Assembly (NCBI RefSeq): GCF_042671975.1
Contig: NZ_JBHXWI010000006.1
Coordinates: 61,520-85,519 of the forward strand
Origin: Rhodococcus sp. NPDC127593
GTDB taxonomy: Bacteria; Actinomycetota; Actinomycetes; Mycobacteriales; Mycobacteriaceae
Direction: 5' to 3'
Length of the DNA: 24,000 nt
The notes under the pieces are model-generated. The model ran no database searches. It was not told the DNA's origin and saw nothing but the letters and a program-made list of their open reading frames with translations. The first letter of the stretch is position 1, and the number at the start of each line of letters is the position of its first letter. A program made the position numbers and the translations under genes. Below are positions 3,329 to 14,432 of this stretch, one piece after another.

Positions 3329-3473
3329 GTATTTCCACCCCGTGCGATCGACCCCTTGATGACCTACGGACAGTACACAGCATTCAGTTACCTTTTGGCA
3401 AATCCAAGAGCCGAGCATTCGCGCGGTGCCACGTTCTCGCTCCCCCGACGACGGCGCTCACCTGGTCCGGAAT

Positions 3474-3516
3474 GCAGAAAAGGCACTCTCTCCGAATGGA
3501 GTGAGTGCCTCTTCTG
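3474..3516 (-). terminator. intrinsic terminator downstream of tRNA-Ala
   Basis: On the minus strand the hairpin AGGCACTCACTCC-ATTC-GGAGAGAGTGCCT has a 2-nt bulge and is followed by TTTTCTG. It starts immediately after the tRNA 3' end. Confidence 0.7.
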
Positions 3517-3592
3517 TGGTGGAGCTGAGGGGAATCGAACCCCTGACCTCTTCGATGCGAACGAAGCGCGCTACCAACTGCGCCACAGCCCC
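3517..3592 (-). tRNA. tRNA-Ala (anticodon CGC), CCA encoded
   Basis: The reverse complement reads GGGGCTGTGGCGCAGTTGGTAGCGCGCTTCGTTCGCATCGAAGAGGTCAGGGGTTCGATTCCCCTCAGCTCCACCA. It folds as a cloverleaf with a G3:U70 alanine identity pair, anticodon loop TTCGCAT and T-loop GGTTCGATTCC. Confidence 0.92.
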
Positions 3593-3689
3593 GTGCGGAT
3601 CCTGCGATCCGCTCGGCAAACTCTAGCAGGCCACCCGCGGCGGGAGCGAATCGCCTACACCGACGTAGCTTTCGGCCCGATTCGCCCGG

Positions 3690-4430
3690 CTACTCACCGG
3701 CAGCTCGGCGCATCGTGGCCTGCTGCATCTGCGCGTCGTCGAAGTGTTCGAGATGGTCGAATTCGGGGTCCTCGTCGTCCACTTCGAGGACGACGGCACC
3801 CGGACGCCGCAACCGGGCCGGGATGAGGCGGAGTTCCTCGTCGCTGCGGGACTCGACACCCAACTGCGAACGGTTGAGACGCGCGGTCCGTCGACGGCGG
3901 ATCTCCTGCTCGATCTGGACCTGCCGGCGCAGATACGCCAAGTAGCCGACCAGGCCGACCACACCGGCTGCGAACGCCCACCACATCAGCGGGGAGATGA
4001 TCAGCCCGAGCGCCGCCGACATGATCGTCGCGAACACGAGCCCGAGAACTGACCGCTGGCGAAACCCGTACCGTGCCTCGCGCGCGATCGCGTCGGCCTC
4101 GGGATCGAAGCCGCCACGCCCTCGGCGCGCCGGTACGTACTCACCGACCGGTGCCCGCTCACCGTCGAATTCGTCTTCCTCTGCGTGAGTGTCCACAAGG
4201 TCCTCCGCGTCGTAGCCGTAGTGGTCCGGTACCGGTTGCCAGTACGGGTCGCTGCGGTGTCCAGCCGCGGGTCCACGCTGCACGGGACGTTCGTCACCGC
4301 GGTGCAGCACACGCGTCGCGAGTGCTGCGTCACTGGTTTGCCGAATCCGGGGGCGGTTGTTCACCAGCATCGGAACCAGGACGAAGAGCCACACGACGAC
4401 GAGCCCGATCCAGAGAAACGAGTTCGGCAT
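3690..4430 (-). CDS. glpR: divisome membrane protein of the SepX/GlpR type
   Basis: ATG 4430 lies 7 nt after GGGAGGAGG; the track's TTG at 4448 overlaps this RBS. Features are the N-terminal TM FLWIGLVVVWLFVLVPMLV, a second TM region and a charged tail. It sits next to rimJ and a MoeA-like gene, as in the conserved actinobacterial glp cluster. Confidence 0.65.
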   Translation of the reverse strand: MPNSFLWIGLVVVWLFVLVPMLVNNRPRIRQTSDAALATRVLHRGDERPVQRGPAAGHRSDPYWQPVPDHYGYDAEDLVDTHAEEDEFDGERAPVGEYVPARRGRGGFDPEADAIAREARYGFRQRSVLGLVFATIMSAALGLIISPLMWWAFAAGVVGLVGYLAYLRRQVQIEQEIRRRRTARLNRSQLGVESRSDEELRLIPARLRRPGAVVLEVDDEDPEFDHLEHFDDAQMQQATMRRAAGE

Positions 4431-4704
4431 ATTGCGACCTCCTCCCAATCGTCTACCAGCATGGATACCGCTGTTGACCCACCCAGGCTAACCGCATGAA
4501 CACGCACATCTTGGCAGACGCGCCGATCTCACCATACTCAGGTGTCACATGCGTAACGCGAAAATGTGGTGCTCGACATGCCTCGCGAAGGCATAGGGAA
4601 CGATCCGGCAAAGACTCGCCGAAAGCGGAGCCCCGGTCAGGAAGCTTTGATACCGTCAGATAACTGCCGCGTAGCTGGACGTTTGTCCATATCCACCACG
4701 GCGG

Positions 4705-5340
4705 TCACGCCCAGGTGGCTTTGCCACTCCGCACGAGCGAATCCGCCACCGTGCCGGGCACGTCCTCGACGGTCATGCCGACCAGAATGTGGTCGCGCCA
4801 CTGCCCGTCGACGTCCAGGTAGCGCTTGAGGAGACCTTCCTCGCGGAAGCCGACGTTGCGGAGCACCGCCTGGCTCGCCAGGTTCTCCGGACGCACGGTT
4901 GCCTCCACGCGGTGCAACCCCACGGGTCCGAAGGCGTGATCGAGCCCCAGCGCGAGTGCGCCCGTGGCCACCCCGAGCCCGTTGACGTCGCTGGCCACCC
5001 AGTAACCGATCCAGGCGGAGCGCAGTGCACCCCGCACCACGTTGCCGATCGTGATCTGGCCGCAGAAATTGCCGTCGAGTTCGATGGCCATCGGCAGCAT
5101 GCGACCCTTCCGGGCCTCCGACCGCAGACTGCTGCACAGTCCGGGCCATCCTGAAATATGGTGGCGCGCTTCCCAGGGCGCCTCCCCCGTCGGCTCCCAC
5201 GGTTCGAGGTGCGCACGGTCGCGGATGCGCAGACGGCTCCACGCGGCCGCGTCACGCAACCTGATGGCGCGCACGGTGACGACGCCACCCTTTACCCGCA
5301 GGGGCCCGAGATGCGGCGGCCAACCCGGATGCTGTGTCAT
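4705..5340 (-). CDS. rimJ: GNAT-family N-acetyltransferase (RimJ/RimL-like)
   Basis: 211 aa with GNAT motifs (GQITIGNVVRGALRSAWIGYWV..., GLGVATGAL, RVEATVRPENLASQAVLRNVGFREEG). The position matches rimJ in the galU-moeA-rimJ cluster. Confidence 0.75.
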   Translation of the reverse strand: MTQHPGWPPHLGPLRVKGGVVTVRAIRLRDAAAWSRLRIRDRAHLEPWEPTGEAPWEARHHISGWPGLCSSLRSEARKGRMLPMAIELDGNFCGQITIGNVVRGALRSAWIGYWVASDVNGLGVATGALALGLDHAFGPVGLHRVEATVRPENLASQAVLRNVGFREEGLLKRYLDVDGQWRDHILVGMTVEDVPGTVADSLVRSGKATWA

Positions 5341-5365
5341 CCCGTCTCACACTGTCGCGGTGTCA

Positions 5366-6625
5366 TCAGCCCCGCTGCGCCAGAAAGGCCACGTCCACCT
5401 GGTCACCGGTCCGGACCTCGGTGATCTCGGGGTCGATGAGGACCAGGCAGTTGGCCTCGGCCAACGTGGCGAGCAGGTGCGAGGACGCGCCCGGCGCCCC
5501 GCCGAGAGCTTGGACGAGGTACTCCCCCGTGGCCTCGTCGCGCATGAGCTGACCGCGGAGAAAACCCTTGCGGTGCTCGATGGACGTGATCGGTGCGACG
5601 GTGCGGGCGGTGACGACGCGTCGCATCGGCTGCCTGCGCCCCAGCGCGATGCGGATCAGCGGGCGCACCATCACCTCGAAGACCACCAGGGCGCTCACCG
5701 GATTGGACGGGAGCAGGAACGTCGGGACCTCGTCCCGGCCCAGCTGACCGAAACCCTGGACCGATCCCGGATGCATCGCGACCCGGTCGACCTCGAGGTT
5801 TCCGAGATCGGCGAGTGCGTCCCGCACATCCTCGGAGGCGCCGCCGCCGACTGCACCCGCGATGACGACGATCTCGGAACGGATCAGCTGACCTTCCACC
5901 ACCTCGCGCAGGCGACGGGCGTCGGCGTTCGCGATACCGACCCGGTTGACGTCGGCGCCGGCGTCGCGGGCGGCGGCGGCCAGCGCGTACGAGTTGACGT
6001 CGTAGACCTGACCGGGACCGGGGGTCCGGTCGACGTCGACGAGTTCGCCACCGACCGAGATGACGGACAGCCGGGGCCGGGGATGCACGAGCACCTTGTC
6101 TCGGCCCACCGCCGCCAGCAACCCCACCTGCGCGGCTCCGATGATGGTGCCTGCCCGGACTGCGACGTCTCCGGGCTGTACGTCGTCGCCGGCCCGGCGC
6201 ACGTAGTCGCCGGAGCGGACCGGCTTGTAGATCTTGACGCGGGCCCGGCCGCCGTCCGTGCGGTCGAGTGGAAGGACGGCGTCGGCGAGCGTCGGGAGCG
6301 GTGCACCCGTGTCGACCTTGACGGCCTGACGCGGCTGCAGCCGGATCGGCTGCCGCGAACCGGCCGTGACCTCACCGACCACGGGAAGCGACAGTTCGAC
6401 GGGAGCACCGTCGTCGTCGCGGATGTCGGTTCCGGCGGCCTGGACGTCGACGCTACGGACGGCATAGCCGTCGATCGCGGCCTGGTCGAAACCGGGAAGC
6501 GGACGCTCGGTGACCACCTCTTCGGCACACAGCAGCCCTTGGGCTTCGGAGATCGCCACACGGACCGGCCGCGGTGCCACCGCGGCCGCGGTCACGATCG
6601 TCTGTTGCTCCTCGACCGACCGCAA
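5366..6625 (-). CDS. glp: MoeA-family molybdopterin molybdotransferase / gephyrin-like divisome protein Glp (MoeA1-position ortholog)
   Basis: 419 aa. TTG start at 6625 lies 7 nt after GGGAGG. The N-terminus MRSVEEQQ...PLPGFDQAAIDGYAV and later blocks are typical of MoeA. It is sandwiched between galU and rimJ. Confidence 0.85.
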   Translation of the reverse strand: MRSVEEQQTIVTAAAVAPRPVRVAISEAQGLLCAEEVVTERPLPGFDQAAIDGYAVRSVDVQAAGTDIRDDDGAPVELSLPVVGEVTAGSRQPIRLQPRQAVKVDTGAPLPTLADAVLPLDRTDGGRARVKIYKPVRSGDYVRRAGDDVQPGDVAVRAGTIIGAAQVGLLAAVGRDKVLVHPRPRLSVISVGGELVDVDRTPGPGQVYDVNSYALAAAARDAGADVNRVGIANADARRLREVVEGQLIRSEIVVIAGAVGGGASEDVRDALADLGNLEVDRVAMHPGSVQGFGQLGRDEVPTFLLPSNPVSALVVFEVMVRPLIRIALGRRQPMRRVVTARTVAPITSIEHRKGFLRGQLMRDEATGEYLVQALGGAPGASSHLLATLAEANCLVLIDPEITEVRTGDQVDVAFLAQRG

Positions 6626-6644
6626 GTTCTTGCCTCCCGAGCTT

Positions 6645-7565
6645 CTAGGAATCCGTCCGCTTCAATCGGTCGATCAGCCATTCGCGCAACGATGGGCCGT
6701 ACTCGTCCATGTCCAACGCAAAGTCAACCGCAGCACGGAGGTAGCCGCCGGGATTTCCGAGATCGTGTCTCGTGCCTCGGTGCACGACGACGTGAACGGG
6801 ATGGCCTTCCTTGATGAGAAGGGCAATGGCGTCGGTGAGCTGGAGCTCGCCACCGGCGCCGGGTTCGATCCGCCGCAGCGCATCGAAGATCGCGCGGTCG
6901 AGGAGGTAGCGACCTGCGGCGGCAAACGTGGACGGCGCATCCTCGATGGCCGGCTTCTCGACCATGCCGACGACCTTGAGGACGTCCGGGTTGGTGGCGT
7001 CGGGAACCGTCTCGACCTCGAAGACGCCGTAAGCGCTCACCTGATCCTTGGGGACGTCGATGGCGCACAGGACGGTGCCGCCACGCTTGCGGCGGACCCG
7101 CGACATCGTCTCGAGCACTCCGCGCGGCATCACCAGGTCGTCCGGAAGGAGCACGGCGATCGCGTCCTCGTCGTCGTCGAGGACCGACTCCGCGCAGCCG
7201 ACCGCATGGCCCAGTCCGAGAGGCTCGTCCTGGACGACGGATTCCACCTCGAGCAGGCCGGGAGCCTTGCGCACCTTCTCGAGCAGGTGATACTTGCCGC
7301 TGGCCTCGAGCTTGCTCTCGAGAACGAGATCCTCGACGAAGTGGGCGACTACTCCGTCCTTACCCGGCGAGGTCACGATCACGAGCCGGCCGGCACCCGA
7401 ATCCGCGGCCTCTCCGGCCACGAGTTCGATACCCGGGGTATCCACGACCGGGAGCAGCTCTTTCGGCACGGTCTTGGTCGCGGGGAGGAATCGCGTACCC
7501 ATTCCCGCTGCGGGCACGACAGCCGTGCGAAAGGCGCTGGCGGTGTGCGGTGCGGCGTCTGTCAT
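6645..7565 (-). CDS. galU: UTP--glucose-1-phosphate uridylyltransferase
   Basis: Contains AVVPAAGMGTRFLPATKTVPKELLPVVD and later GalU blocks. ATG 7565 (RBS AAGGTGG just upstream) is preferred over the in-frame GTG at 7571 used by the track. Confidence 0.88.
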   Translation of the reverse strand: MTDAAPHTASAFRTAVVPAAGMGTRFLPATKTVPKELLPVVDTPGIELVAGEAADSGAGRLVIVTSPGKDGVVAHFVEDLVLESKLEASGKYHLLEKVRKAPGLLEVESVVQDEPLGLGHAVGCAESVLDDDEDAIAVLLPDDLVMPRGVLETMSRVRRKRGGTVLCAIDVPKDQVSAYGVFEVETVPDATNPDVLKVVGMVEKPAIEDAPSTFAAAGRYLLDRAIFDALRRIEPGAGGELQLTDAIALLIKEGHPVHVVVHRGTRHDLGNPGGYLRAAVDFALDMDEYGPSLREWLIDRLKRTDS

Positions 7566-7669
7566 GCCCACACCTTAACCGTGCGGACCTACTCGATAGT
7601 CACCAAGATCCTGTCGGTTACCTCCCGCAACCCGTCGGGACGCTCGCCGGTCGGCTCTAAGGTTGGGGC

Positions 7670-8248
7670 ATGCACGCACGAACGAAGGACGAGTGGCGGC
7701 AACTGGTGCTCTCCGGGCGGCGCGCGCTGACCCCCGAACGCCGCACCGCCGAGGACCGGGCGCTTGTCGCGCTCGTCACACAGGGAATCTCCTGCGGATC
7801 GACCGTCTGCGCCTACGTTCCCACCGCGCTCGAGCCGGGATCGCTGGACTTTCTCGACGCCCTCCGACAGGTCGCCGGACGCGTCCTCGTGCCCGTCACG
7901 CGCGAACCGGGTCCGCTCCACTGGTCCGAGTTCACGGGCGCGGACGGTCTCGCCGACGCGAGTTACGGCCTGCGCGAGCCGACCGGACCGGTGTGGGAAC
8001 CCGACGAGATCCGTTCGGCCGGGACCATTTTCGTTCCCGCCCTGGCCGTCGACAGGAGGGGCGTGCGCCTCGGCCGCGGCGCCGGCTTCTACGACCGGAC
8101 TCTCGGCCTCGCCGCCCCCTACACACGGCTGATCACGGTGGTCCGCGACGAGGAACTGGTATCCGAGCTGCCCGAGGACCCCCATGACGTACGTATGGGA
8201 TGGGCACTCACCCCCGGAAAGGGCCTCGTCGCGCTCGGCGAACACTGA
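7670..8248 (+). CDS. 5-formyltetrahydrofolate cyclo-ligase
   Basis: 192 aa with ...LVPVT...YGLREP...IFVPALAVDRRGVRLGRGAGFYDRTL, characteristic 5-FCL motifs. It is divergent from galU. Confidence 0.85.
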   Translation: MHARTKDEWRQLVLSGRRALTPERRTAEDRALVALVTQGISCGSTVCAYVPTALEPGSLDFLDALRQVAGRVLVPVTREPGPLHWSEFTGADGLADASYGLREPTGPVWEPDEIRSAGTIFVPALAVDRRGVRLGRGAGFYDRTLGLAAPYTRLITVVRDEELVSELPEDPHDVRMGWALTPGKGLVALGEH

Positions 8249-10036: not shown

Positions 10037-10073
10037 TCCGGGCCCGTGCAGCAGCTGCGTGCACGGGCCCGGA
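10037..10073. terminator. bidirectional terminator hairpin between mscL (+) and porin A1 (-)
   Basis: A 13-bp perfect stem, ccgggcccgtgca (10038-10050) with tgcacgggcccgg (10060-10072), encloses a 9-nt loop. CTCTTTGG follows on the + strand. Confidence 0.6.
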
Positions 10074-10092: not shown

Positions 10093-10770
10093 TCAGCCGA
10101 TGCTGAAGGGCTGTCCCCACAGGGTGACGGTGCTGCTCACGTTGTCCGTCTCGACGGACACGTTCACGTACGACCGTGCCTGCGCGTAACCGGCGCAGCC
10201 GTTCACGCCGAGGGTCGAGTCGGCCCAGGTGACCGAACCGTCGGTACCCTCGAAGCTGTTGTATGCCGAGTGCGACTCTCCGCCGTAGGCGTCGGCCGAC
10301 TCGAGGTCGAGGATGTCGACGCTGACGGCCTCACCGGGGCCGAGGGTGATACCCGCGCTCGTGCCGCCGTCGACAGGAACCGAAACGGTACCGTCAGCAT
10401 TCACCACCGGAGTCGAGCCGGCTTCACCGCCTGCCTCCGCACCGAAGTCGACCTGGCAGGCCAGGACGTAACCCGGCTGGATGTCGGCACCGGTCGCTCC
10501 GGCGCCGTCCAGGTGGACGGAGGCCTTGCCGTTGACCCAGACGTTACGGTGCAACGGAGTCGAACCCATCGACGGCGAAACGTTCGCGCTCTCATCGGTC
10601 AGGTTCACCGTCACCACGGTGCCGTCAGCCAACGTCTGCGTGATCGAACCACCAGGCAGCGGAATGAACGTGTCGGCGCTCGCCGCACCGACGGAAAAGA
10701 AGCCCATGGTCGCGGCAGCAGCGGCACCGACCGCGGCCAGACGCACACCGTTCTTACGGTTGATGATCAT
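10093..10770 (-). CDS. MspA-family porin, paralog A1 (acidic variant)
   Basis: ATG 10770 follows GAGAGGGGAA. The signal peptide is MIINRKNGVRLAAVGAAAAATMGFFSVGAASA|DTFIPLPGG. The mature part is about 193 aa and ends TLWGQPFSIG (compare the MspA end ...TYGEPWNMN). The track's 315-aa version would overlap the upstream gene. Confidence 0.8.
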   Translation of the reverse strand: MIINRKNGVRLAAVGAAAAATMGFFSVGAASADTFIPLPGGSITQTLADGTVVTVNLTDESANVSPSMGSTPLHRNVWVNGKASVHLDGAGATGADIQPGYVLACQVDFGAEAGGEAGSTPVVNADGTVSVPVDGGTSAGITLGPGEAVSVDILDLESADAYGGESHSAYNSFEGTDGSVTWADSTLGVNGCAGYAQARSYVNVSVETDNVSSTVTLWGQPFSIG

Positions 10771-11544
10771 TGTTCCCCTCTCAGGGATAGAAACCTCGCG
10801 CACGCGAGAAAGTGGGTGGGAAGAACTGCGAAAGAGACCGAAATCAGCCGATGCTGAACGGCGCACCGTACAGAACGGTCTTCGAGTAGTCGTTGCCCAC
10901 GATCTCCACGACCGAGTACGAACGAGCCTGCGCGAATCCACCGCACTTCTGCACCTGCAGCTCCGCATCCTGGTACTGCAGCGCGTACACGCCGTCCTTC
11001 TTGATGTCCTTGCCACCCAACGGCACGTACTTGATCTCACCCGAAGCCAACGGAACCGTCAGACCCGCACTCGCCGACAACGAATCGAGACCCAGACTGA
11101 ACGACGGGTTCGCCGACAGACCGGTGATATCCACCTGGCAACCCACGATGTACCCGGTCGACACCCGCGAAACACCATGCGTCGTCGACGCATTCGTACC
11201 GTTGTAGGTACCCGCATTGTTCGTCGTCGAGTTCGCGTCCGGAACGTCGGTGACGTCCTTGATGCCCTTGACATCGGCAACGACGGTGCCCGACACCCAG
11301 GCCACACGACCGACGCCATTGGCAGCCAGCGACGGCGACGACAGAGCGCTCTCCGCAGTACGCGTCAACGTCACATTCGGACCGGCCTTCGAACCATCAG
11401 GCAGCGGGATGAAAGTATCCGCGCTCGCCGCACCAGTGGACATCAAACCGAGTGCAACAGCCGCAGCAGCACCCAGGCCTGCAATACGGGCGCCACGGCG
11501 CAGGCCGGACTTGCGGTTCTCGCTCATTCGTTCCCCTCATCAGG
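10516..11544. repeat. direct repeat copy 1 (1,029 bp, perfect)
   Basis: A block-by-block comparison with 12196-13224 found no mismatch. It covers the first 255 nt of gene A, the A-B spacer, all of gene B and 17 nt upstream of B. Confidence 0.9.
10844..11527 (-). CDS. MspA-family porin, paralog B1
   Basis: 227 aa. RBS GAGGGGAA precedes the start. The signal peptide is MSENRKSGLRRGARIAGLGAAAAVALGLMSTGAASA|DTFIPLPDG, and the protein ends VLYGAPFSIG. Confidence 0.8.
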   Translation of the reverse strand: MSENRKSGLRRGARIAGLGAAAAVALGLMSTGAASADTFIPLPDGSKAGPNVTLTRTAESALSSPSLAANGVGRVAWVSGTVVADVKGIKDVTDVPDANSTTNNAGTYNGTNASTTHGVSRVSTGYIVGCQVDITGLSANPSFSLGLDSLSASAGLTVPLASGEIKYVPLGGKDIKKDGVYALQYQDAELQVQKCGGFAQARSYSVVEIVGNDYSKTVLYGAPFSIG

Positions 11545-11663
11545 CGTGGTTGCTCCGACCTTCGGAGAAGACCTACGACCTAGCGAGGTCCAAAGTTAGA
11601 GCATTCGAGTCTGAAACGTAATATCCGGAACGGTGCATTTACGTAAGTGTTACCAGACATAAA

Positions 11664-11737
11664 GGCGCGTTATTTGCGCGTAATAGCGCATTTTTGACGC
11701 GCCAAAAATCGGGGCGCGAGTATTACCGCGCCCCGAT
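11664..11737 (-). terminator. two tandem intrinsic terminators after porin A2
   Basis: Read on the minus strand. Hairpin 1 is ATCGGGGCGCG-GTAATACT-CGCGCCCCGAT (11737-11708), followed by TTTTGG. Hairpin 2 (11703-11664) pairs GGCGCGT with ACGCGCC, contains a nested TGCGC/GCGCA stem, and is followed by TTTAT. Confidence 0.7.
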
Positions 11738-11772
11738 TCCGGGTAATTCCTACTTGTTTATGGAGAAAGCAA

Positions 11773-12450
11773 TCAGCCGATGCTGAAGGGCTGTCCCCAC
11801 AGGGTGACCGTGCTGCTGACGTTGTCGGTGCTGACGGCAACCTTGACGTAGCTGCGCGCCTGGGCGTAGCCGGCGCAACCGCTCACTCCGAGGGTCGAGT
11901 CGGCCCAGGTGACCGAACCGGTCTTGCCCGTGAACTTGTTGGCACCGGAGTGCGACTCGGCGCCGTAGGCGTCCTTCTTCTCGAGGTCGAGAATCGTGAC
12001 GTTCTTCGCCTGGCCGGGGCCGAGGGTGATTCCGGCGCCGGTGGCACCCGTGACCGGAATAGAGACGGTGCCGTCGTCGGCGACGGACGGCGTCGAGCCC
12101 GTCTTGCCGTTGGCGCTGGCACCGAAGTCGACCTGGCAGGCCAGGACGTAACCCGGGGTGATCGAGGCTCCCTTGGCTCCGGCGCCGTCCAGCGTGACGG
12201 AGGCCTTGCCGTTGACCCAGACGTTACGGTGCAACGGAGTCGAACCCATCGACGGCGAAACGTTCGCGCTCTCATCGGTCAGGTTCACCGTCACCACGGT
12301 GCCGTCAGCCAACGTCTGCGTGATCGAACCACCAGGCAGCGGAATGAACGTGTCGGCGCTCGCCGCACCGACGGAAAAGAAGCCCATGGTCGCGGCAGCA
12401 GCGGCACCGACCGCGGCCAGACGCACACCGTTCTTACGGTTGATGATCAT
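11773..12450 (-). CDS. MspA-family porin, paralog A2 (near-neutral variant)
   Basis: Same start context and the same first 84 residues as A1. The C-terminal 141 residues differ at 32 positions by hand alignment. Confidence 0.8.
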   Translation of the reverse strand: MIINRKNGVRLAAVGAAAAATMGFFSVGAASADTFIPLPGGSITQTLADGTVVTVNLTDESANVSPSMGSTPLHRNVWVNGKASVTLDGAGAKGASITPGYVLACQVDFGASANGKTGSTPSVADDGTVSIPVTGATGAGITLGPGQAKNVTILDLEKKDAYGAESHSGANKFTGKTGSVTWADSTLGVSGCAGYAQARSYVKVAVSTDNVSSTVTLWGQPFSIG

Positions 12451-13224
12451 TGTTCCCCTCTCAGGGATAGAAACCTCGCGCACGCGAGAAAGTGGGTGGG
12501 AAGAACTGCGAAAGAGACCGAAATCAGCCGATGCTGAACGGCGCACCGTACAGAACGGTCTTCGAGTAGTCGTTGCCCACGATCTCCACGACCGAGTACG
12601 AACGAGCCTGCGCGAATCCACCGCACTTCTGCACCTGCAGCTCCGCATCCTGGTACTGCAGCGCGTACACGCCGTCCTTCTTGATGTCCTTGCCACCCAA
12701 CGGCACGTACTTGATCTCACCCGAAGCCAACGGAACCGTCAGACCCGCACTCGCCGACAACGAATCGAGACCCAGACTGAACGACGGGTTCGCCGACAGA
12801 CCGGTGATATCCACCTGGCAACCCACGATGTACCCGGTCGACACCCGCGAAACACCATGCGTCGTCGACGCATTCGTACCGTTGTAGGTACCCGCATTGT
12901 TCGTCGTCGAGTTCGCGTCCGGAACGTCGGTGACGTCCTTGATGCCCTTGACATCGGCAACGACGGTGCCCGACACCCAGGCCACACGACCGACGCCATT
13001 GGCAGCCAGCGACGGCGACGACAGAGCGCTCTCCGCAGTACGCGTCAACGTCACATTCGGACCGGCCTTCGAACCATCAGGCAGCGGGATGAAAGTATCC
13101 GCGCTCGCCGCACCAGTGGACATCAAACCGAGTGCAACAGCCGCAGCAGCACCCAGGCCTGCAATACGGGCGCCACGGCGCAGGCCGGACTTGCGGTTCT
13201 CGCTCATTCGTTCCCCTCATCAGG
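12196..13224. repeat. direct repeat copy 2 (1,029 bp, perfect)
   Basis: Identical to 10516-11544. The period is 1,680 bp. Confidence 0.9.
12524..13207 (-). CDS. MspA-family porin, paralog B2 (100% identical to B1)
   Basis: The nucleotide sequence is identical to 10844-11527 at an offset of 1,680 bp. Confidence 0.8.
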   Translation of the reverse strand: MSENRKSGLRRGARIAGLGAAAAVALGLMSTGAASADTFIPLPDGSKAGPNVTLTRTAESALSSPSLAANGVGRVAWVSGTVVADVKGIKDVTDVPDANSTTNNAGTYNGTNASTTHGVSRVSTGYIVGCQVDITGLSANPSFSLGLDSLSASAGLTVPLASGEIKYVPLGGKDIKKDGVYALQYQDAELQVQKCGGFAQARSYSVVEIVGNDYSKTVLYGAPFSIG

Positions 13225-13436
13225 ATTCATGCAAGTTCCCAGCCCCGACGATCGAAGCTGAGGAGTGGTCCATTTCGGGCCCAGCGCAGTATTCGCAGCA
13301 AAGGTGTCCGCAGAGTTAACTGCGGACGACCAGTTGCCGGAATTTCGACACTAGAGACAAACCTCACAAGGAGGCTCGTCCGGGCAACGACGTGGCACCA
13401 CGCCCCGCCCTCCATCTTCGTACTGACTCGTCAGGG

Positions 13437-13465
13437 ACATTAACCCGAGCTAAGAACCTGGGCAA
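13437..13465 (-). promoter_or_regulatory. candidate sigma-A-type promoter for the B2-A2 porin operon
   Basis: On the minus strand: TTGCCC (13465-13460), a 17-nt spacer, then TAATGT (13442-13437). This would give a leader of about 220 nt. It is a pattern match only. Confidence 0.3.
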
Positions 13466-13645
13466 CGTGATCAGCTCGTGACGCAATTGTGATGTGCCTC
13501 ACAAAGTTGAAAACGAAACATTACCTACGGGTAGCCCCGCTTTGGATTCTCGTGAACGAAAGCGGCCGTACCAGTAGTTTTCCGAGCGCAATTTTTTCCG
13601 TTACTGCCGACAACACTTAGATTCATCCAGATTTCAATCAGGCGT

Positions 13646-13867
13646 CTACCCGTGATGAGGGGGAACCTGACGCCGAATCCACTCCTCGGACTCATTGCGT
13701 TTGTCCACATACTGAGATGCCTCGTCCTGTCCGCGTTCGTCCGCGGTGGTGTCGGGGAAGACGTCCCCGAAGATGCGTTCGAGCCGGGCCCTGTCGATCG
13801 GGGCCCGGCTCGGAACTGCCTGCTCGTCGGGCTCGCTGTGCGAGTCCGGCTCGTCGGAACGAGAAAT
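13646..13867 (-). CDS. small acidic protein ending ...EEWIRRQVPPHHG; no canonical start codon (tentative ATT start)
   Basis: The frame is open from 13900 to TAG 13648-13646. The translation ISRSDEPDSHSEPDEQAVPSRAPIDRARLERIFGDVFPDTTADERGQDEASQYVDKRNESEEWIRRQVPPHHG is protein-like. GGAAGG lies 8 nt upstream of ATT 13867, which is 4 nt after the moaB stop. The only ATG/GTG/TTG in frame is GTG 13708, which would give 20 aa. Confidence 0.4.
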   Translation of the reverse strand: MSRSDEPDSHSEPDEQAVPSRAPIDRARLERIFGDVFPDTTADERGQDEASQYVDKRNESEEWIRRQVPPHHG

Positions 13868-13871
13868 CGTC

Positions 13872-14432
13872 TCAGCCTTCCAGACCGGACAATTCGGAAA
13901 TCACGTGCGCCGCGAGCGGCGTCAGGGTGGCCATGCCGTCCCGGACCGCGGCGCGGGAGGAAGCGAGGTTTACCACGAGTGTGCTGCCGGACACTCCGGC
14001 GAGCCCGCGGGAGAGGCCCGCGTCGAGCGAACCGGCGGCGAGACCGGAAGACCGGAGGGCCTCCGAGATTCCAGGAATCTCGCGGTCGAGGACCTCGGCG
14101 GTGACATCGGGGGCGACGTCACGCGGCGACACGCCGGTACCGCCGACGGAGACGACGAGGTCGACGCCTCCGATGACGGCGGTGTTGAGCGCGTTGCGGA
14201 TCTCCACCTCGTCGGCCGCCACCGCCACGATGGCGTCGACGATGAAGCCGGCCTCGTTCAGCAGTTCTGTCACCAGGGGCCCGATGGAGTCCTTGCCGTC
14301 ACCGTGAGCGGTGCGGTCGTCGACGATTACCACCAGCGCGCGGCCGGCCAGCGAGGCTTCGATTTCCATGGTCCCTACCGTAGTGGCCCCGTTCAGAACA
14401 GACTCGACCTGCCCGAGAATCCCCGTGTTCAT
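13872..14432 (-). CDS. moaB: MogA/MoaB-family molybdenum cofactor biosynthesis protein
   Basis: Contains ...ALVVIVDDRTAHG...DLVVSVGGTGVSPRDVAPDV...GLSRGLAGVSGSTLVVNLASS. ATG 14432 overlaps the pepD stop (TGATG). An alternative start is ATG 14369. Confidence 0.8.
   Translation of the reverse strand: MNTGILGQVESVLNGATTVGTMEIEASLAGRALVVIVDDRTAHGDGKDSIGPLVTELLNEAGFIVDAIVAVAADEVEIRNALNTAVIGGVDLVVSVGGTGVSPRDVAPDVTAEVLDREIPGISEALRSSGLAAGSLDAGLSRGLAGVSGSTLVVNLASSRAAVRDGMATLTPLAAHVISELSGLEG

Follow-up and report, generated by a model that had tools for sequence, protein, structure and literature searches.

Why would a soil bacterium keep two pairs of porin genes side by side, with one member of each pair identical to the last nucleotide and the other identical for its first 85 codons before splitting into an acidic and a near-neutral form? 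The question is raised by a 24,000-nucleotide (nt) stretch of the genome of Rhodococcus sp. NPDC127593 (contig NZ_JBHXWI010000006.1), a member of the jostii/opacus/koreensis group of soil Rhodococcus. We call this whole stretch the window, and all coordinates given here are positions within it. The four genes in question, all on the minus strand, encode porins of the MspA family and are transcribed in the order B, A2, B′, A1. Our answer, to which we give a probability of about 0.65, is that the locus comprises tandem two-gene MspA-family porin operons in which a charge-variable A subunit is combined with a constant B subunit, giving two types of channel.

The answer would matter for a simple reason. 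To our knowledge, very little is understood about how outer-membrane permeability is tuned in mycolic-acid bacteria, and nearly all the characterised MspA-type channels that we know of are strongly cation-selective. These channels leave open the question of how anionic nutrients cross the mycolic-acid outer membrane, and for Rhodococcus such nutrients include characteristic substrates: phosphate, aromatic acids and bile acids. A conserved operon pair differing only in the charge module of one subunit would offer a simple hypothesis that can be tested directly.

Two operons with a constant subunit

The first operon opens with B (12524–13207), which encodes a subunit of 227 amino acids (aa) with a mature net charge of −3. 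It is followed by A2 (11773–12450), the gene for a near-neutral A-type subunit of 225 aa (mature net charge −3; isoelectric point, pI, 5.17). In the second operon, B′ (10844–11527) is the same as B at every nucleotide and precedes A1 (10093–10770), whose 225-aa product is strongly acidic (mature net charge −19, pI 4.05). For the A genes we use the start MIINRK, which is common to all homologs; the longer A open reading frames that were listed for the window start at an upstream GTG.

The original prediction, made from the sequence of this locus, had an invariant B subunit that could pair with either A1 or A2. Both copies of B have the same sequence, and each is located directly 5′ of its own A across a 73-nt spacer, so that the gene layout fits an invariant partner for two charge variants. 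B and A are themselves 33–35% identical, a terminator is placed after A and not after B, and the two, as adjacent MspA-family genes on the same strand, likely form an operon. All the products match the Pfam family PF09203 far above its cut-off of 22.9 bits (A1, 157.3 bits; A2, 152.8 bits; B, 83.3 bits).

The arrangement is not peculiar to this strain. In every complete locus that we retrieved from Nocardia and Rhodococcus, a B-type gene lies directly upstream of an A-type gene, often as B-A-B-A, and the tandem pair belongs to a larger family of two-gene porin operons. Further single B-A pairs are found elsewhere in the genomes of strains NPDC056960 and WS4, with A charges of −6 to −14 and B genes 77–91% identical to B, and two other loci (L034 and L044) each hold three B-A units.

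A charge difference with a direction

A1 and A2 are identical over residues 1–85 and differ at 32 positions, all of them between residues 86 and 207. At the DNA level, the diverged 3′ segments (codons 86–225 plus the stop; 10093–10515 in A1 and its counterpart 11773–12195 in A2) share 76% of their nucleotides. These 423-nt segments differ at 101 positions, and the first 255 nt of A, the spacer and B show no difference at all.

Formal charge, in counts that leave out His, is altered by 17 of the 32 substitutions, and all but one of the 17 leave A1 more negative than A2 (binomial p = 2.7e-4); A125D alone runs the other way. Over residues 85–225, A1 has 11 Asp, 7 Glu and 1 Arg, for a net charge of −17, and A2 has 8 Asp, 2 Glu, 8 Lys and 1 Arg, for a net charge of −1. 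A recount thus returned every figure given earlier for this pair: the number of differences, the number of charge changes, the tallies of Asp, Glu, Lys and Arg and the two net charges. The gap of about 16 charges per subunit that had been proposed also persists in the mature proteins. With the predicted signal peptide cut between ASA and DTF, A1 stands at −19 and A2 at −3, alongside −3 for B and −12 for MspA itself.

How unusual is such a difference? Between orthologs of the same charge class, 12 of 150 amino-acid changes (8%) alter charge, as against 17 of 32 (53%) between A1 and A2, an odds ratio of 13 (Fisher p = 3e-8, for sequence pairs that are not independent of one another). The charge difference between A1 and A2 is not due to chance.

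Two old and maintained charge classes

The directional replacement of charge had been taken as a sign of diversifying selection, and that part of the original prediction is only partly right. By the Nei–Gojobori method, the two 3′ segments have a synonymous divergence (dS) of 0.56 and a nonsynonymous divergence (dN) of 0.21, so that dN/dS is 0.38; it never exceeds 0.73 in any 30-codon window of the segment, and the dN/dS test set out beforehand therefore goes against the claim. What a dS of 0.56 does say is that the two segments are old.

Each type of 3′ segment has orthologs, with its charge conserved, in at least five other genomes. The A1 protein is 100% identical to one in Rhodococcus sp. 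NPDC127530 and 98% identical to one in Rhodococcus jostii, while A2 has orthologs at 96–98% identity in Rhodococcus opacus DSM 44188, Rhodococcus koreensis and R. jostii CP118321. Among closer ortholog pairs within a charge class, dN/dS is 0.06–0.18, compared with 0.23–0.40 for paralogs; each variant is now held by strong purifying selection. Gene order follows charge as well. In R. opacus DSM 44188, R. koreensis DSM 44498 and R. jostii CP118321, the upstream A is near-neutral, at 0, and the downstream A acidic, at −16 (charges that count the signal peptide), and the same polarity recurs in strains WS4 and T7 (−4 and −3 upstream versus −16 and −15 downstream). A tree built from the C-terminal segment unites the acidic copies from five genomes (bootstrap 92%) and, likewise, the neutral copies from three (100%); in a tree of the N-terminal 84 residues, the two copies cluster by genome and not by gene position. 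The T7 ortholog of A1 (positions 6001–6684 of the Rhodococcus sp. T7 locus) has accumulated 26 substitutions and keeps a net charge of −15, a shift of only 1. Its stem segment has been largely replaced (…GAGVESGNLADLVTGAATSIPVTPAGSGAV…), the sequence having turned over while the charge was kept.

A second clade repeats the pattern. In Rhodococcus tukisamuensis, Rhodococcus spelaei and two more strains, the upstream A has a charge of +1 and the downstream A a charge of −8 to −14. The two copies are mutual closest relatives within the spelaei/tukisamuensis group (bootstrap 95%) and within the jostii group (100%), and the neutral copies of the two Rhodococcus groups cluster together in 0 of 100 replicates. 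Site by site, the difference in charge between upstream and downstream copies is correlated between the clades (r = 0.35, permutation p = 4e-4), and six charge sites (96, 112, 152, 158, 174 and 176) have the same polarity in both. Either the charge split arose twice at the same sites, or these sites were retained while the remainder of the segment was converted; since both origins demand it, selection on charge is required whichever is right. Across database homologs, the mature charges of Rhodococcus A-type subunits are bimodal, with modes at −15 to −20 and at −1 to −3 and some values in between, and those of B-type subunits are confined to −7 to 0.

It is here that neutral divergence has to be considered. 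Duplication may have been followed by relaxed constraint or simple drift, with the charge difference as a by-product, and a paralog dN/dS of 0.38 would be compatible with this, as would the missing neutral copy in R. jostii RHA1. Yet drift would have had to send 16 of 17 charge changes in one direction, to raise the odds of a charge-altering change 13-fold over those between orthologs, to conserve charge class among those orthologs, to reproduce the polarity of six sites in a second clade and to leave the A subunits of Rhodococcus with a bimodal distribution of charge. We regard this as very improbable. Selection on charge itself is well supported by the direction of the changes, their conservation and the parallel pattern in the second clade. 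The best reading of A1 and A2 is as two charge classes that parted long ago and that selection has maintained, rather than as the product of current diversifying selection.

Where the charges would lie

That these proteins are MspA-type porins, as had been proposed, is supported by both the PF09203 match and the fold. The A1 model from AlphaFold2 (a monomer, built from a 111-sequence alignment) has a mean predicted local distance difference test score (pLDDT) of 73.8, rising to 75–95 in the rim domain, with a helix at residues 8–21 predicted at low confidence. Its best Foldseek matches in the Protein Data Bank (PDB) are 1uun_A (E = 2e-8) and 2v9u_A, the MspA rim domain (target-normalised TM 0.83), so that A1 is predicted to have the β-sandwich fold of the rim domain. 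A signal peptide can be read from the sequence: a basic N terminus (RK..R), an Ala-rich hydrophobic core and a cleavage site between ASA and DTF. Removing it leaves 193 aa for A and 191 aa for B, which fits the family range of about 180–195 aa.

Across the family, residues 107–122 and 128–143 alternate between apolar (odd positions) and polar (even positions) around a turn at 124–127. This is the pattern expected of an amphipathic stem hairpin with one side facing the lipid and the other facing the lumen. Eleven of the A1/A2 substitutions fall in this predicted stem. Eight are on the polar face (E112S, E116K and D134T among them), the apolar face has two, both conservative (A117T and V131I), and one is in the turn (A125D); every charge change in the stem sits on the polar face or in the turn. 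The idea behind the original prediction required the substitutions not to face the lipid, and in the predicted stem the charged ones do not. In the rim domain, every substitution falls on an exposed position of a strand or within a loop, and the core has none.

Placing these residues on MspA requires an alignment between distant relatives. We obtained the link through Pfam, Foldseek and hhalign; neither phmmer with A1 nor hmmsearch with a profile built from 38 A-type sequences picked out MspA among PDB sequences. (The MspA sequence we used is identical to 1uun_A but for the A96R crystal mutation.) When MspA itself was the query, all the homologs returned were about 90% identical to it, and they did nothing to better the profile alignment. 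In the hhalign alignment, which agrees with the predicted order and length of the strands, MspA D118 corresponds to D152 in A1 and T152 in A2, D134 to S172 and K172, and E139 to D177 and T177, respectively; at low score, the constriction residues D90-D91 correspond to A125-D126 in A1 and D125-D126 in A2. D118, D134 and E139 carry the vestibule and mouth charges whose reversal produced the M2 nanopore, with large effects on DNA capture (PMC9038099). We consider the mapping of the rim onto MspA suggestive and that of the stem reasonably firm. A match made by eye between ‘LGPG’ in A and ‘GNGPG’ in MspA was dropped for its mismatch of 19 residues in C-terminal length; hhalign and predicted secondary structure agree in setting ‘LGPG’ opposite ‘LFPG’ instead.

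Two proposed channel types, and what weighs against them

How might such a locus work? We propose that tandem duplication of a two-gene operon gave rise to the order B-A2, terminator, B′-A1, in which B would be the constant subunit (about −3 when mature) and A the charge-variable one, at −3 (A2) or −19 (A1). By homology to MspA and to NfpA/NfpB, the product of each operon would be an oligomeric channel, shaped like a goblet and set in the mycolic-acid outer membrane, in which A and B are probably combined as a hetero-oligomer. By the same homology, the charge differences would be found along the vestibule wall, around the pore mouth and on the side of the stem that faces the lumen. Channels of B and A1 would have a far more negative potential, with a strong preference for cations and exclusion of anions. 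Channels of B and A2 would be weakly selective and pass anionic or neutral solutes better. With a terminator between the operons and distinct, conserved regions upstream of them, the two channel types may be expressed under different conditions. Judged from the substitutions, different pore electrostatics are likely, very different ion selectivity is what we infer from them, and the bacterium probably makes pores of two electrical characters. For those who work on MspA-type pores, A1 and A2 would then be a natural, near-isogenic channel pair in which vestibule and stem charge could be related to selectivity, which bears on the engineering of nanopores.

Several points weigh against this reading. 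The profile alignment between the A family and MspA is poor (hhalign probability 2–5%), with corroboration from predicted secondary structure only, and stem residues 110–138 have a pLDDT below 50 in the monomer model, although low confidence is expected there of a barrel formed between subunits. About 8 of the 17 charge changes (at residues 93, 96, 147, 149, 158, 159, 203 and 207) are at exposed rim positions that may face either the lumen or the outside. In both subunits the turn predicted to form the constriction is acidic (NADG in A1; ADDG, with one Asp more, in A2); an acidic residue near the turn is common across the family. The narrowest point of the channel, its main selectivity filter, may therefore differ little, and less than the vestibule and stem. 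With dN/dS below 1, the standard test gives no sign of positive selection. In R. jostii RHA1 the locus has no neutral copy, which makes that copy dispensable, at least there. Finally, PorA and PorB of Rhodococcus ruber each form channels alone (PMC9233653), so the hetero-oligomer is something we infer for this locus and cannot be taken as given.

Some of these points lend weight to another explanation, in which the charge differences would lie mainly on the outer, cell-surface face of the rim and would tune adhesion, interaction with cationic peptides or metals, or recognition by phages that use the porin as a receptor, rather than selectivity. The exposed positions of all the rim substitutions, the charge changes whose face cannot be told and the turn that stays acidic in both subunits would all suit it. 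What it leaves unexplained is the stem, where E112S, E116K and D134T are on the polar, predicted lumen-facing side of the hairpin, and the alignment of D152T, S172K and D177T with vestibule and mouth residues of MspA. A receptor caught in an arms race should also turn over quickly between orthologs, and these have a dN/dS of 0.06–0.18 with charge almost never altered. We think this outer-face explanation unlikely, though it deserves to be kept in mind, and prefer the reading of two channel types.

A homogenised block with a sharp edge

What, then, of the half of the locus that does not vary? The identical block spans 17 nt 5′ of B, B itself, the 73-nt spacer and A codons 1–85. Its two copies (12196–13224 and 10516–11544, both on the minus strand) are 1029 nt long and 100% identical, and the units that contain them are spaced 1680 nt apart. 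Beyond the block, identity drops to 76% over the 423-nt 3′ segments, and no similarity between the units was found past their stop codons or farther upstream of the block. The same is seen across the jostii/opacus group: in all five of its genomes compared in this way, the block that is identical within a genome starts exactly at −17 from B and ends at A nucleotide 225–264. Within a genome, dS across the block is 0–0.05 (the two blocks of CP118321 differ at three synonymous sites), as against 0.08–0.40 between genomes. Because the block is identical within each genome yet diverged between genomes, we attribute its identity to gene conversion, which has been recurrent and ongoing after speciation. 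Its limits are the end of homology upstream and the diverged segment downstream, and the sharp boundary at residue 85 marks where conversion stops, not where divergence began.

An identical block might also be had more cheaply. If a whole B-A unit had been duplicated recently and one 3′ end then replaced by a foreign or distantly paralogous segment, no recurrent conversion would be called for. One genome alone cannot tell the two scenarios apart, and the other B-A loci with differently charged A genes in NPDC056960 and WS4 could have served as donors. But six genomes have this mosaic, and have it with one and the same upstream boundary. Their blocks differ from one another by a dS of 0.08–0.40 while being identical or almost identical within each, and both 3′ segments are orthologous across the six. 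Together, these observations require homogenisation after speciation, and a single recent event is hardly credible. Less probable still, and the least of all the explanations we weighed, is that the identical 1-kb blocks and hence the mosaic are artefacts of assembly. Short-read assemblies do break at the repeat, as in R. jostii NBRC 16295 and NPDC056960. The structure is nonetheless present in long contigs and complete chromosomes (R. koreensis, 9.06 Mb; a long-read ‘tig’ contig of R. opacus; CP118321), and the 3 single-nucleotide polymorphisms (SNPs) between the CP118321 blocks are unlike a collapsed consensus. Among draft genomes, the contig of R. jostii NBRC 16295 breaks off inside A at residue 86, exactly where the identical block ends, and that of Rhodococcus sp. 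NPDC056960 at residue 13. Given such breaks, the array is probably under-reported in drafts.

R. jostii offers both states of the locus. CP118321 has the full array, B-A(0)-B-A(−16), at positions 3345–7678 of its locus, while RHA1 (CP000431, positions 5022–7678 of its locus) has a single B-A unit with an acidic A. In this RHA1 unit, the upstream region of operon 1 stands before a B gene that has the SNPs of unit 2 and before the acidic A. Such a combination fits either recombination in the opening ~170 nt of the identical block, with deletion as its result, or an assembly that was collapsed. The latter would have been proved if CP118321 were RHA1 sequenced again, but this was ruled out by 17 mismatches in 4.5 kb upstream.

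These observations can be gathered into a broader reading, which we put forward tentatively and would ourselves still bet against. The locus may be a selection-bounded gene-conversion system, in which a constant module (B, the A signal peptide and the first rim strands) is homogenised and the 3′ charge module of A is shielded. In this system the acidic/neutral split would have been built, or rebuilt, in parallel at the same sites in two clades, and the identical blocks would let strains delete or re-wire their variants. If it is true, outer-membrane pore electrostatics would be switched at the level of lineages; the acidic subunit of RHA1, for instance, would now be under the operon 1 promoter. 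Whether or not that is so, the locus is, for students of evolution, a clean case of concerted evolution halting at a functional boundary, with signs of parallel evolution of charge.

Arrays of the B-A-B-A kind in Nocardia asiatica and Nocardia asteroides present a different picture. There A is homogenised to its 3′ end (up to 100% identity) and B differs (73–100% per 60-nt bin), which is the reverse of the Rhodococcus pattern.

Signals between and around the operons

Between the operons, 11703–11735 on the minus strand holds an intrinsic terminator after A2, a GC-rich hairpin (CGGGGCGCG-loop-CGCGCCCCG) followed by a U tract. Its folding energy is −31.1 kcal/mol (z = −3.2), and its stem has undergone compensatory changes in strains WS4 and T7. 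Downstream of it lies the upstream (promoter or leader) region of operon 2 (11528–11702, minus strand), unrelated to that of operon 1 save for the last 17 nt, which include the ribosome-binding site. Over the whole interval from the A2 stop to the B′ start, terminator included, 148 of 269 alignment columns are invariant in six genomes.

Operon 1 is preceded by a conserved non-coding region (13208–13510, minus strand), a candidate promoter and/or long leader. Across the same number of genomes, with a coding dS of 0.1–0.4, 263 of its 335 alignment columns are invariant, and over its ~300 nt it is more conserved than the synonymous sites of the adjoining genes; it may serve as a densely packed regulatory region or form a long structured leader. 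Scanning the window and the upstream regions against Rfam returned only a tRNA, with no match in 13208–13510, and a scan for the sigma-70 consensus found no promoter, 13208–13510 included. With a terminator between them and unrelated, conserved regions upstream of each, separate control of the two operons is plausible. At the far end, a GC-rich inverted repeat (10038–10072; CCGGGCCCGTGCA...TGCACGGGCCCGG, read from the sequence) lies between the convergent A1 and mscL genes and is likely a bidirectional terminator.

The neighbourhood in the window is otherwise familiar. On one side are mprA/mprB-like two-component genes, a gene for an HtrA-type protease and moaB, and on the other mscL, a SAF-domain gene and a folate cyclo-ligase gene, all matching those of R. 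jostii. The mprAB-pepD-like neighbours point to envelope stress as a condition that may bear on expression of the porins. The tRNA gene is at 3520–3592 on the minus strand (RF00005, 69.7 bits). One further oddity is an open frame of ~84 codons at 13646–13900 (minus strand; ending …AETISRSDEPDSHSEPDEQAVPSRAPIDRARLERIFGDVFPDTTADERGQDEASQYVDKRNESEEWIRRQVPPHHG at its stop), which overlaps the moaB stop codon in the +1 frame. In six genomes it stays open to the same stop and is conserved as protein. No ATG, GTG or TTG follows the upstream in-frame stop; the frame has no gene call in the two R. jostii records and no match in Pfam or NCBIfam. It could extend MoaB through a frameshift or begin at a non-canonical codon.

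Comparison with known systems

MspA of Mycolicibacterium smegmatis (PDB code: 1UUN) resembles the Rhodococcus A subunits in its PF09203 domain, its rim-domain fold, its secreted chain of ~190 aa and its amphipathic stem hairpin; acidic residues at the hairpin turn may be a further likeness. The sequences are distant, at 25–28% identity over the hhalign region and 16% in the Foldseek structural alignment, and MspA is a homo-octamer, whereas the Rhodococcus locus encodes two subunit types as an operon. In charge, MspA (−12 per subunit) falls between the two, A1 being more acidic (−19) and A2 far less (−3). The M. smegmatis paralogs MspB, MspC and MspD each depart from MspA at a few to 18 positions, and we know of no description of them as charge classes.

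The closest match in gene organisation is NfpA/NfpB of Nocardia farcinica, likewise encoded by two adjacent MspA-family genes; A is 56–58% identical to the N. farcinica MspA-family proteins P0102 and P0114. NfpA and NfpB form channels only together, as PMC9233653 reports from Klackta 2011, and the lumen of the modelled Nfp channel is strongly negative (PMC4239869). Where we sampled B-A-B-A arrays in Nocardia, however, both A copies were similar in charge (about −5 to −7, signal peptide included), and the acidic/neutral split of A appears to be a Rhodococcus feature. Within Rhodococcus itself, the PorARr and PorBRr proteins from R. ruber and PorARc of Rhodococcus corynebacteroides are cation-selective members of the MspA family, and the R. 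ruber pair is encoded by adjacent genes (PMC9233653). These porins belong to a different subfamily, with lengths of 267 and 213 aa including the signal peptide, and neither tandem operon duplication nor charge dimorphism is described for them in PMC9233653. More generally, a limited literature search found no description of a conserved acidic/neutral dimorphism of one MspA-family subunit, of a charge-variant subunit paired with an identical partner gene or of gene conversion that stops at a charge module.

Recombination between tandem Msp-type genes does have a precedent. In Mycobacterium abscessus, MAB_1080 and MAB_1081 recombine, and in-frame fusion or deletion leaves one copy (PMC10243398). 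That outcome is like the single-unit state of R. jostii RHA1, which has the look of having arisen in a similar way. The M. abscessus events, however, involve single genes, cause loss of function and occur in patients, whereas in Rhodococcus the unit is B with the 5′ part of A, homogenisation is long-term and the variable segment is protected.

For function, the nearest analogy comes from outside the family. OmpF and OmpC of Escherichia coli, as against PhoE, are paralogs of the same fold whose charged pore residues differ, so that some prefer cations and the other anions, and they are expressed under different conditions. The likeness is one of function only, since these are unrelated, 16-stranded trimeric barrels encoded by unlinked genes. 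The Rhodococcus pair would add to that theme two things that the E. coli porins lack, an invariant partner subunit shared by both variants and concerted evolution of the genes that encode them.

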